Shown here: positions 3,461-5,095 of the stretch, in pieces
Layout: each line of letters starts with the position of its first letter
How positions within the stretch are numbered: position 1 is the stretch's first letter
Source: Minisyncoccia bacterium
Lineage (GTDB): Bacteria > Patescibacteriota > Minisyncoccia > UBA6257 > JAAZHW01
Length of the DNA: 64,000 bases
Assembly: GCA_049720475.1 (NCBI GenBank)
Contig: JBNASH010000033.1
Location: 3,784-67,783, forward strand
Direction: 5' to 3'
Translations under genes and position numbers: made by a program
Notes under the pieces: generated by a model
Database searches by the model: none
Seen by the model: the letters and a program-made list of their open reading frames with translations, nothing else
What the model was told of the DNA's origin: nothing

Positions 3461-3569
3461 GTTAAAAAATAAATCTCTTTTTCATTGTTTCGTGCCGCCC
3501 ATCGCTATTCTAAAAAGAATAGCGAACCGACCTAAGGACCTCATTCTCAGCGAGAATGAGCGTCATCCT

Positions 3570-5095
3570 TTAAAGATGATCCACCGACAGCTTCCGCTAC
3601 CGGTGCCTTGTTACGACTTCGTCCCTGTCACCGAGCCCAGCTTGCACCGATCTTCATCGGTGTTCGGCTGTTCCCGGCTCCCTTGACGTGACGGGCGGTG
3701 AGTACAGGACTCGAGAACGTATTCACCGCGGCATGGCTGATCCGCGATTACTAGCGATTCCGGCTTCACGAGGGCGGGTTGCAGCCCTCGATCCGAACTG
3801 GGGCCGATTTTTAGGGATTTGCTCCGCCTTACGGCTTGGCGACCCTTTGTATCGGCCATTGTATCATGAGTGTCGCCCAGGGCATCAGAAGGCCATGCTG
3901 ATTTGACGTCATCCCCTCCTTCCTCCCCGCCCTTTTGGCACTATTTCTCAATAATGCCCAAAGGGCGGGGCAGTTTCGCATGACACATGTAACATGCGAT
4001 AGGGGTTGCGCTCGTTACCCCACTTAAGGGAACAACTCAAGCCACGAGCTGACGACAACCATGCAGCACCTGTGCTGGCGTCCTTGAAAGACGGTCATCC
4101 TTTCGGACAACCTTCACCAGCATTTCAAGCCCTGGTAAGGTTCTTCGTTTTGTGTCGAATTAAACCTCATGATCCACCGCTTGTGCGAGTCCCCGTCTAT
4201 TCCTTTGAGTTTTAGCCTTGCGGCCGTACTTCCCAGGCGGCTGACTTAACGCGTTAGCTTCGCCACTCCGAGGGTCGATACTCGAAATAGCTAGTCAGCA
4301 TCGTTTAGGGCGTGGACTACAAGGGTATCTAATCCTTTTTGCTCCCCACGCTTTCGTGCCTCAGCGTCAGAAATACCCCAGTGGCTCGTCTTCACCTCCG
4401 GCGTTCCTGCCGATATCAACGGATTTCACCCCTACACCGGCAGTTCCAGCCACCCCTGGTATTCTCTAGTTTACCCATCTCTTTGGCGTTCCCCAAGTTG
4501 AGCTTGGGTCTTTAACCAAAGATGCGATAAACCGCCTACGCACCCTTTACGCCCAGTAAATCCGGATAACGCTTGAGGCCTACGTATTACCGCGGCTGCT
4601 GGCACGTAGTTGGCAGCCTCTTATTCCTGGGGTACTGTCATTAAGCACAAGGCTTAATTCATCCCCCAGAAAAGGAGTTTACACCCCGAGGGGCTTCTTC
4701 CTCCACGCGGCGTCGCTCGGTCAGGCTTTCGCCCATTGCCGAATATTCTCGACTGCTGCCTCCCGTAGGAGTGGGACCCGTGTCTCAGTGTCCCTGTTGG
4801 GGAACAGCCTCTCAGCTCCCCTACCCGTCATAGGCTTGGTGAGCCATTACCTCACCAACTACCTGATGGGACCTAGGCCCATCCTTGAGCGGATTGCTCC
4901 TTTACTGAATATTTAAAAAATATTCAGACCATCGGGTATTAGCCAATCTTTCGACTGGTTATCCCCGTCTCAAGGGTAGGTTACCAAGGTATTACTAACC
5001 CGTTCGCCGCTATTCCGTCTTGCGACGGAACCGCTCGACTTGCATGCCTTATCCACGCCGCCAGCGTTCATCCTGGACCAGGATCAAATCCTCAG
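3570..5095 (-). rRNA. rrs: 16S ribosomal RNA, full length (~1.5 kb), with no large insertion.
   Basis: Reverse complements of universal 16S blocks are present. These include GTATTACCGCGGCTGCTGGCAC at 4583-4604 (519R), GGACTACAAGGGTATCTAATCC at 4311-4332 (806R), and ...CCTTGTTACGACTT at ~3601-3614 (1492R-like). The 5' end reads GAGGATTTGATCCTGGTCCAGGATGAACGCTGGCGGCG. Confidence 0.95.

Follow-up and report, generated by a model that had tools for sequence, protein, structure and literature searches.

A degenerate 16S rRNA anti-Shine-Dalgarno tail and likely Shine-Dalgarno-independent initiation in a Parcubacterial genome

The 16S rRNA gene and its 3' tail

The 64,000-nucleotide (nt) stretch analyzed here (the window; contig JBNASH010000033.1 of the Minisyncoccia bacterium assembly GCA_049720475.1) carries on its minus strand a complete 16S rRNA gene whose 3' tail is devoid of CCUCC, the core of the anti-Shine-Dalgarno (anti-SD) sequence. 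The gene matches RF00177 over model positions 1-1533 without truncation, scoring 1469.8 bits (Rfam gathering cutoff, 50). It is unlinked: no 23S or 5S gene was found within the 64-kb window, and neither a spacer tRNA nor a 23S gene follows it. Upstream lies an infA-rpsM-rpsK-rpsD-rpoA-rplQ-rplM-rpsI cluster, and downstream are a response-regulator gene, type IV pilin genes and a type II secretion system (T2SS)-ATPase cluster (window 1-5800).

Helix 45, read from 3605 to 3582, consists of CACCGGUAGC, a GGAA loop and GCUGUCGGUG, with ten standard pairs and zero non-canonical flags in the cmscan alignment, and is directly followed on its 3' side by the single-stranded segment GAUCA (3581-3577). 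In the 13-nt tail beyond the helix (GAUCAUCUUUAAA), UCUUU stands where the family consensus has CCUCC, a difference of three C-to-U transitions, and AAA (3571-3569) stands where the consensus reads UUu. The Rfam model ends at 3569, and the predicted mature 3' end is placed by homology to Escherichia coli. CCUCC has zero occurrences in the whole 16S RNA and the 170-nt trailer behind it. The original prediction, whose quoted RNA string corresponds to the reverse complement of plus-strand positions 3560-3620 (the strand was unstated), had claimed just this replacement of CCUCC next to an intact helix 45 and GGAA loop; the Rfam alignment and direct reading agree with it exactly, and a 16S tail without the anti-SD core is thus confirmed as genuine. 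A relocated anti-SD was considered and rejected, since the whole 16S RNA and its trailer are without CCUCC and no AAGGA-only sites exist for the word UCCUUA in the conserved trailer box.

The tail in relatives and across Patescibacteria

The window has a GC content of 33% and encodes proteins 100% identical to proteins named 'Minisyncoccia bacterium', while the next protein relatives are named Candidatus Pacebacteria, Paceibacterota or Parcubacteria group. On this protein evidence the sequence is assigned to a metagenome-assembled genome (MAG) of the Parcubacteria (Paceibacteria/Minisyncoccia) within the candidate phyla radiation (CPR).

Relatives' 16S 3' ends were fetched from independent assemblies (JGI, ENA, NCBI) through the rpsI-16S-response regulator synteny, which is conserved in L001, L004, L007 and L195; in L006, rpoB follows rpsI. 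The window's tail recurs identically (UCUUUAAAGG) in L001 (JGI, 16S identity to the window 96.8%), L004 (JGI, about 93.6%), L085 (GTDB representative, 87.4%) and L195 (JGI), and is decayed further in L007 (NCBI Pacebacteria, GCA_028696375.1, 89.6%; UUUUUAAAGG), L089 (GTDB, 84.8%; UUCUAAAAGG) and L194 (ENA; UUCUUAAAGG). Identity figures were computed for five of the seven (84.8-96.8%), with none for L195 and L194. An alignment to close relatives, suggested along with the original prediction, therefore finds CCUCC in no close relative and a degenerate tail in 7/7, which makes the variant typical of the lineage and not a singleton. Judged from these sequences, the degenerate tail is inherited and shared by all relatives found, to a 16S identity as low as about 85%. 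The L004 16S gene (10522-15385) is about 4.6 kb long owing to insertions, one of which encodes a LAGLIDADG homing endonuclease (14558-14986); the window 16S, unlike that of L004, has no insertion.

Because the same or a further decayed tail is found in independent assemblies of relatives, an artefact of sequencing, assembly or binning at 3565-3585 that hides a true CCUCC can be regarded as excluded. Amin et al. do discuss single-base tail differences as possible sequencing errors in genomes with strong SD sequences, and the window has SDs, but here three substitutions are involved, the four identical tails stem from different projects and assemblers, and the further decay in L007, L089 and L194 shows a trait that tracks phylogeny.

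Canonical tails were found only at a distance. A metagenome scan returned 65 contigs that join the same helix 45 to CCUCC, all of them at or below about 80% 16S identity to the window and with other Parcubacteria as nearest named relatives; they were rejected as close relatives or as a second copy, being distant Parcubacteria with none near-identical. This bears on the idea that the SD-led genes described below are served by another 16S gene, one located outside the window and ending in a canonical CCUCC tail, or by ribosomes of mixed type, with the window copy as a divergent paralog. Such an arrangement would suit these genes, whose SDs fit a canonical tail at -11.4 to -12.8 kcal/mol (ViennaRNA); Alteromonas has been reported with two 16S types that differ in their anti-SDs (PMC6107228), and the window covers just 64 kb. 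Against it, the window copy is full-length and high-scoring and sits in the rpsI-16S-response regulator synteny common to all relatives, and Minisyncoccus archaeiphilus (L016; cultured), the only complete genome of a cultured member of the class, has one copy each of 5S, 16S and 23S (PMC12281837), its single 16S ending in the degenerate tail UUUAUUUA. We consider a hidden canonical copy very unlikely. Exact look-ups aimed at a second 16S had no result for valS or P0121, and P0124 led only to a 3.7-kb Logan contig whose end falls 50 nt short of the 16S trailer; the run SRR25293831 carries the identical neighboring gene.

Beyond the closest relatives, at least 119 GTDB species representatives carry helix 45 followed by GGAUCAU tails (GTDB scan). 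Among the matches listed, these are overwhelmingly Patescibacteria, mostly Paceibacterota, Staskawicz-, Nealson-, Azambacteria and others, and show more than 40 different U/A-rich tail 8-mers, among them UUUAUUUU (18 times) and UUUUUUUA (17 times); the near-canonical UCUCCUUU occurs 17 times. Tsurumaki et al. (2022, RNA 28:1041, PMC9297842) detected the anti-SD motif in only 48% of Parcubacteria and consider SD helices unlikely to form where it is missing, and the CPR members Wolfebacteria, Campbellbacteria, SR1 and Peribacter are listed as SD-scarce organisms lacking CCUCC (PLoS One 2024, PMC10783764). The statement that anti-SD loss is rare thus stands across bacteria but not for this lineage, where it is the published norm. 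The tail finding correctly re-discovers a trait already on record; taken alone it matters little beyond recording a known property of Parcubacterial ribosomes and flagging the window as CPR DNA.

Along the trailer, two hairpins are followed by a conserved box, then by the 3' strand of a processing stem and finally by a terminator-like hairpin (Table 1). Both hairpins change their stems by compensatory substitutions among relatives (hairpin 1 in L001, L004, L007 and L085), the segment GGCACGAAACAAUGAA pairs with the leader as a predicted processing stem, and equivalents of the terminator-like hairpin are present in L001, L004, L007 and L085. The core of the box, YUAGGUYGRU, is kept in L085, L089, L019, L118, L060 and L102. 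These features raise the question whether mature 16S rRNA might keep part of the trailer (hairpin 1 and the box) as an mRNA-binding extension. The hairpins flanking the box vary, but its own sequence is the same in four relatives; it contains UCCUUA, the hexamer that ends the E. coli tail, and a second GGAUCAC occurs just after the tail in L001 and L004. The trailer, however, has no CCUCC; UCCUUA would select UAAGGA, and every upstream AAGGA is part of AAGGAGG; and processing normally removes the leader-trailer stem region in which the box is located. An extended tail of this kind is highly improbable. A GUCGA/GUCGG word is found at a similar distance after the tail in many other Patescibacteria. 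A potential hairpin within the tail region (UCAUCU/GGAUGA), present in the window, was discarded, as it is kept in neither L001 nor L004.

Table 1 Features of the window discussed in the text, with positions and strand
Feature	Position	Strand	Sequence, arrangement or conservation
16S rRNA gene	3569..5099	-	RF00177 full-model match; unlinked
Helix 45 with GGAA tetraloop	3582..3605	-	intact; cmscan alignment and direct reading
Single-stranded 3' tail (13 nt)	3569..3581	-	Rfam model ends at 3569
Anti-SD core position	3572..3576	-	UCUUU; family consensus CCUCC
Trailer hairpin 1	3540..3560	-	CUCAUUCUC-GCU-GAGAAUGAG; in the precursor, outside the mature tail
Conserved trailer box	3526..3540	-	GGUCCUUAGGUCGGU; identical in window, L001, L004, L007
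16S processing stem, 3' strand	3481..3500	-	GGGCGGCACGAAACAAUGAA; complementary to leader 5153-5173; conserved in relatives
16S processing stem, 5' strand	5153..5173	-	CUUCAUUGUUUCGUGUCGUCC; predicted leader-trailer RNA duplex
Terminator-like hairpin with U run, end of 16S transcription unit	3431..3460	-	AAAAACCGCC-AUUAAUAAAU-GGCGGUUUUU
Leaderless-type promoter, response-regulator gene	3359..3398	-	TTGTCA-N17-TATAAT-N7-ATG; conserved in L001, L004, L193
Leaderless-type promoter, AI-2E transporter gene	24094..24131	-	TTGCTA-N17-TATAAT-N7-ATG
Leaderless-type promoter, tyrS	52472..52511	+	TTGACT-N17-TAAAAT-N8-ATG; tyrS identified via synteny and Pfam in L192
Leaderless-type promoter, 557-aa gene	62708..62746	-	TTGAAA-N17-TATAAT-N7-ATG
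Orphan SD, 90-aa coiled-coil protein (14339-14611)	14621..14625	-	9 nt before ATG; conserved in intergenic alignment with L001, L004, L007
Orphan SD, 126-aa protein (13972-14352)	14357..14361	-	conserved in L001, L004
Orphan SD, 137-aa putative lipoprotein (48664-49077)	49084..49088	-	L192 ortholog keeps AAAAAGGAGG
Orphan SD, PIN-domain protein (49104-49628)	49634..49638	-	AAGGAGG kept in L192 ortholog
Orphan SD, CAAX-protease-like membrane protein (50490-51038)	51044..51048	-	AAGGAGG kept in L192 ortholog
Orphan SD, 333-aa hexapeptide-repeat protein (51462-52463)	51451..51455	+	L192 ortholog (61% identity) keeps AAAGGAGG
Orphan SD, 264-aa protein of unknown function (62811-63605)	63612..63616	-	
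Orphan SD, small membrane-protein ORF of ~65 aa	63939..63943	-	AAAGGAGG-N7-ATG

Upstream sequences: default leaders, leaderless-type promoters and orphan Shine-Dalgarno sites

Leaders were listed for 67 open reading frames (ORFs), called by a longest-ORF/first-ATG rule that is blind to upstream sequence. Genes encoding core functions, including the ribosomal proteins, infA/infB, efp, secD/F, valS, tyrS, queA, rluA and the pilins, have A/U-rich leaders without an SD, as do the core-gene orthologs in L001, L004, L007, L192, L194 and L195. Most starts have no GGAGG-type motif 5-10 nt upstream, the exceptions being 7 of the 64 scored genes and one small ORF. The claim that no SD stands upstream accordingly holds for every core gene that had been named, but fails as a generalization, given eight genes with a perfect GGAGG.

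Pairing with the genome's own tail is not enriched either. In a ViennaRNA duplex scan of the window leaders, a free-energy check of the kind that had been proposed for the whole genome, the mean was -3.15 kcal/mol compared with -2.96 kcal/mol in shuffled leaders, and -6 kcal/mol was reached by 7.6% of genes compared with 7.7% of shuffles, so that few leaders pair significantly with the tail and there is no excess of own-tail pairing. AAAGA, the Watson-Crick partner of the new tail, is not enriched at SD spacing in these leaders. A co-evolved SD was rejected on the same grounds, since scans with the tail itself, with a longer version of it and with that of L007 gave no enrichment over shuffled leaders; a new SD matched to UCUUU did not co-evolve.

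The most enriched upstream 5-mers belong to the GGAGG family and to TATAA/ATAAT, the latter reflecting promoters close to the start. Six of the window's ATGs complete the pattern TTGNNN-N16-18-TANAAT-N5-9-ATG, and gene starts account for four of them (3361-, 24096-, 52509+, 62710-; P = 3e-5 given 66 starts among 1689 ATGs). At these four, the -10 box ends 5-9 nt before the start and the -35 box lies at 16-18 nt from the -10 box, a geometry that predicts leaderless mRNAs. These promoters supply concrete, testable leaderless candidates. A similar sigma-70-type promoter arrangement is present at 39585 (-).

Against this background, a small set of genes has SDs of maximal strength for which the genome appears to have no anti-SD (orphan SDs). 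A perfect GGAGG with its 5' end at -15..-8 precedes 7 of the 64 scored genes, with an eighth case at a small ORF on the window edge; the window-wide density predicts about 0.25 such cases (P about 1e-8), and GGAGG at -60..-16 or -7..-1 was found in 0/64 scored genes. All eight sites are perfect AAGGAGG sequences 4-9 nt before ATG (8 of about 65 genes). The genes they precede are all accessory, encoding two small coiled-coil proteins, a putative lipoprotein, a PIN nuclease, a CAAX-type protease, a hexapeptide-repeat protein and two proteins of unknown function; none is a ribosomal protein gene. The 333-aa hexapeptide-repeat protein is very rare, with three matching clusters (100%, 61% and 59% identity) in a collection of 5.8 billion proteins.

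These sites are conserved. L001, L004 and L007, whose own contigs have degenerate tails, all retain the intergenic SD ahead of the 90-aa gene, and four further SD-led genes keep AAGGAGG in their L192 orthologs (~60% protein identity; GCA_026415775.1), while the core genes interleaved with those four are without SD in both the window genome and L192. Six of seven SD-led genes have a TTAAAA(A)TTT box 1-9 nt upstream of GGAGG (14641, 49101, 49655, 51061 and 63630 on the minus strand, 51437 on the plus strand). Because the same box directly precedes the tRNA-Ala and tRNA-Ser genes (55032 and 41691, -), it is probably a -10-like promoter element; if so, leaders would be very short and the mRNAs would begin at the SD.

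Could the tail have been re-tuned instead of lost? UCUUU would then act as a weak, promiscuous anti-SD, pairing through G.U wobble with GGAGG and in Watson-Crick fashion with AAAGA or UUUAAAGA, and the few strong AAAGGAGG sites would be the only leaders that reach a useful pairing energy. On direct reading, UCUUU against GGAGG gives GU, GC, AU, GU and GU pairs, consistent with changes that are all C-to-U, and the SD consensus AAAGGAGGU forms with the tail a duplex of five base pairs, a 1x1 loop and three base pairs at -3.7 kcal/mol, compared with -12.5 kcal/mol with a canonical tail; the SD-led leaders range from -3.5 to -10.3 kcal/mol (ViennaRNA). The SDs are also nearly all-or-none and of maximal strength, with seven perfect and few partial sites. 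However, the shuffled-leader comparison and the lack of AAAGA at SD spacing speak against re-tuning, and the core conserved among orthologs is GGAGG and not AAAGA. Moreover, L007 has kept its SD in the presence of a UUUUU tail (-1.2 kcal/mol), and a GGAGG peak at -15..-8 persists in Patescibacteria whose tails are unrelated, UUUAUUUA (-0.2 kcal/mol) being one example. One further point in favor, a perfect 10-nt tail complement (UUUAAAGAUG, -9.0 kcal/mol) before the start of the ribosomal protein S9 gene (rpsI, 5282-5788, -), was rejected as an SD: it lies in the 3' coding end of rplM, 1 nt from the ATG, the same 10-mer recurs inside efp (30902-30911), and it is probably a coincidence or a coding constraint of rplM. 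Re-tuning is, on balance, improbable. The S9 protein has an N-terminal extension of ~40 aa, its length being kept in the closest relatives (100% coverage matches, 166-174 aa).

The positional peak of GGAGG was compared between tail types in genes next to rRNA loci. Loci with degenerate tails have GGAGG at -15..-8 in 27/543 genes (6-fold over background, P 2e-13), a strict set, limited to loci free of CUCC-like words up to 100 nt from the tail, has it in 10/274 (about 5-fold, P 6e-5), and contigs from Parcubacteria that join this helix 45 to a canonical CCUCCUUUCUAG tail have it in 6/301 (about 5-fold, P 4e-3). The peak is thus not peculiar to this clade but is also found in other tail-less Patescibacteria loci. 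A tentative explanation, to which we assign a modest probability, is that orphan SDs are functional through a GGAGG reader other than the 16S tail and define a separately controlled class of translation in the CPR; candidates for this reader are a regulatory or ribosomal protein, a different RNA or a minority ribosome. Otherwise, the sites might serve a purpose other than translation where short transcripts begin, or an unseen ribosome variant might exist. Should the sites be a real exception to the rule that genomes without anti-SD have no SD motifs, they would point to an unknown way of recognizing GGAGG, one that the cultured relative M. archaeiphilus makes testable.

Elsewhere in the window, RpoA (6493-7281, -) is 262 aa long and matches positions 9-251 of a 320-position profile, its C-terminal domain apparently missing, and AlaRS (12166-13947, -) is of a short 593-aa form (NF002436), both of which fit the 'smaller proteins' pattern described for the CPR. 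A G+C-rich hairpin-forming segment (39670-39745, -) lies within an AT-rich intergenic gap of ~530 nt, for which no Rfam match was obtained at E up to 0.1 (39550-40170); it may be an uncharacterized small RNA or a terminator.

Probable order of events and comparison with known systems

Taken together, the data are best read as inherited anti-SD decay combined with mostly SD-independent initiation in a Parcubacterial genome, a reading that we hold with good confidence. It is built on sequence, conservation, taxonomy, the lack of own-tail complementarity and promoter geometry; the position of the mature 3' end, the sequence of changes and the routes by which genes actually initiate are inferences. 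SD-led initiation would already have been marginal in Parcubacteria before the tail changed; selection on the tail would then have relaxed, and the anti-SD would have drifted by C-to-U transitions in an AT-rich genome. Because canonical-tail and tail-less Parcubacteria use SDs equally rarely, SD use was probably lost first, with the tail decaying later. The original prediction, that tail loss implies SD-independent or leaderless initiation as the default, is upheld with respect to the default, but its implied causality, in which loss of the tail forces the mode of initiation, is probably reversed, as Parcubacteria with canonical tails use GGAGG no more often. Initiation could proceed by three routes: leaderless mRNAs for operon-first genes, with the -10 box ending 5-9 nt before the ATG; short, unstructured A/U-rich leaders; and coupling or re-initiation where a gene abuts or overlaps the one before it, a frequent arrangement that would suit coupled re-initiation. 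In practical terms, gene finders that rely on SDs will mis-call starts here.

Several observations weigh against inherited decay with SD-independent initiation. Foremost are the perfect SDs with canonical spacing before eight genes, conserved in relatives without CCUCC, where an SD-free system predicts otherwise. The mature rRNA 3' end was set by homology only, the window spans 64 kb of a MAG whose remainder has room for a second rRNA operon, the canonical-tail set consists of only about 300 rRNA-adjacent genes on metagenome contigs, and the gene starts rest on the simple longest-ORF/first-ATG rule.

Leaderless mRNA initiation occurs in many archaea, in Actinobacteria and Deinococcus, and with lambda cI. 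The likeness to these systems lies in the placement of the -35 and -10 boxes at four starts, which should set the start of transcription on or beside the AUG; the difference is that leaderless initiation is known here from promoter geometry alone and for a minority of genes.

The closest match is the Parcubacterial subgroup of Tsurumaki et al., which belongs to the same taxon and has the same missing CCUCCU, the Paceibacterota, Staskawiczbacteria and Nealsonbacteria relatives found here being decayed likewise. That study records whether the motif is present and how far its absence coincides with loss of uL1, an association and not a defining trait, without the tail sequences, upstream motifs, leaderless promoters and residual canonical SDs reported here; the rplK-rplA region lies outside the 64-kb window. 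The genome likewise resembles the SD-scarce organisms without CCUCC in published surveys: no CCUCC is found in the ~13-nt tail after helix 45, the variant is common to close relatives, and complementarity to the own tail is not enriched. In contrast to those surveys, among them that of Amin et al. (2018), who listed 128 taxids without CCUCCU and concluded that these lack SD motifs too (PMC6107228), about 11% of the genes here keep a perfect SD with a sharp positional peak.

SD-independent initiation is also the default in Bacteroidia/Flavobacteriia (Jha et al. 2021, PMC7797042; McNutt et al. 2023, PMC9976891), which share with this genome A-rich leaders and a small minority of genes with a strong extended SD. 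Most Bacteroidia keep CCUCC, hidden in a bS21/bS18/bS6 pocket, and their SD-led genes (e.g. rpsU) can pair once the tail is freed; in this genome the tail reads UCUUU, no SD-led gene encodes a ribosomal protein, and the pocket mechanism cannot read GGAGG because the CCUCC core is gone; the genes for the pocket proteins lie outside the window. The Bacteroidia state, anti-SD kept but SD scarce, is instead resembled by the Parcubacterial contigs with canonical tails, and the proposed order of events, SD use first and tail later, is the transition that has been hypothesized for Bacteroidia.

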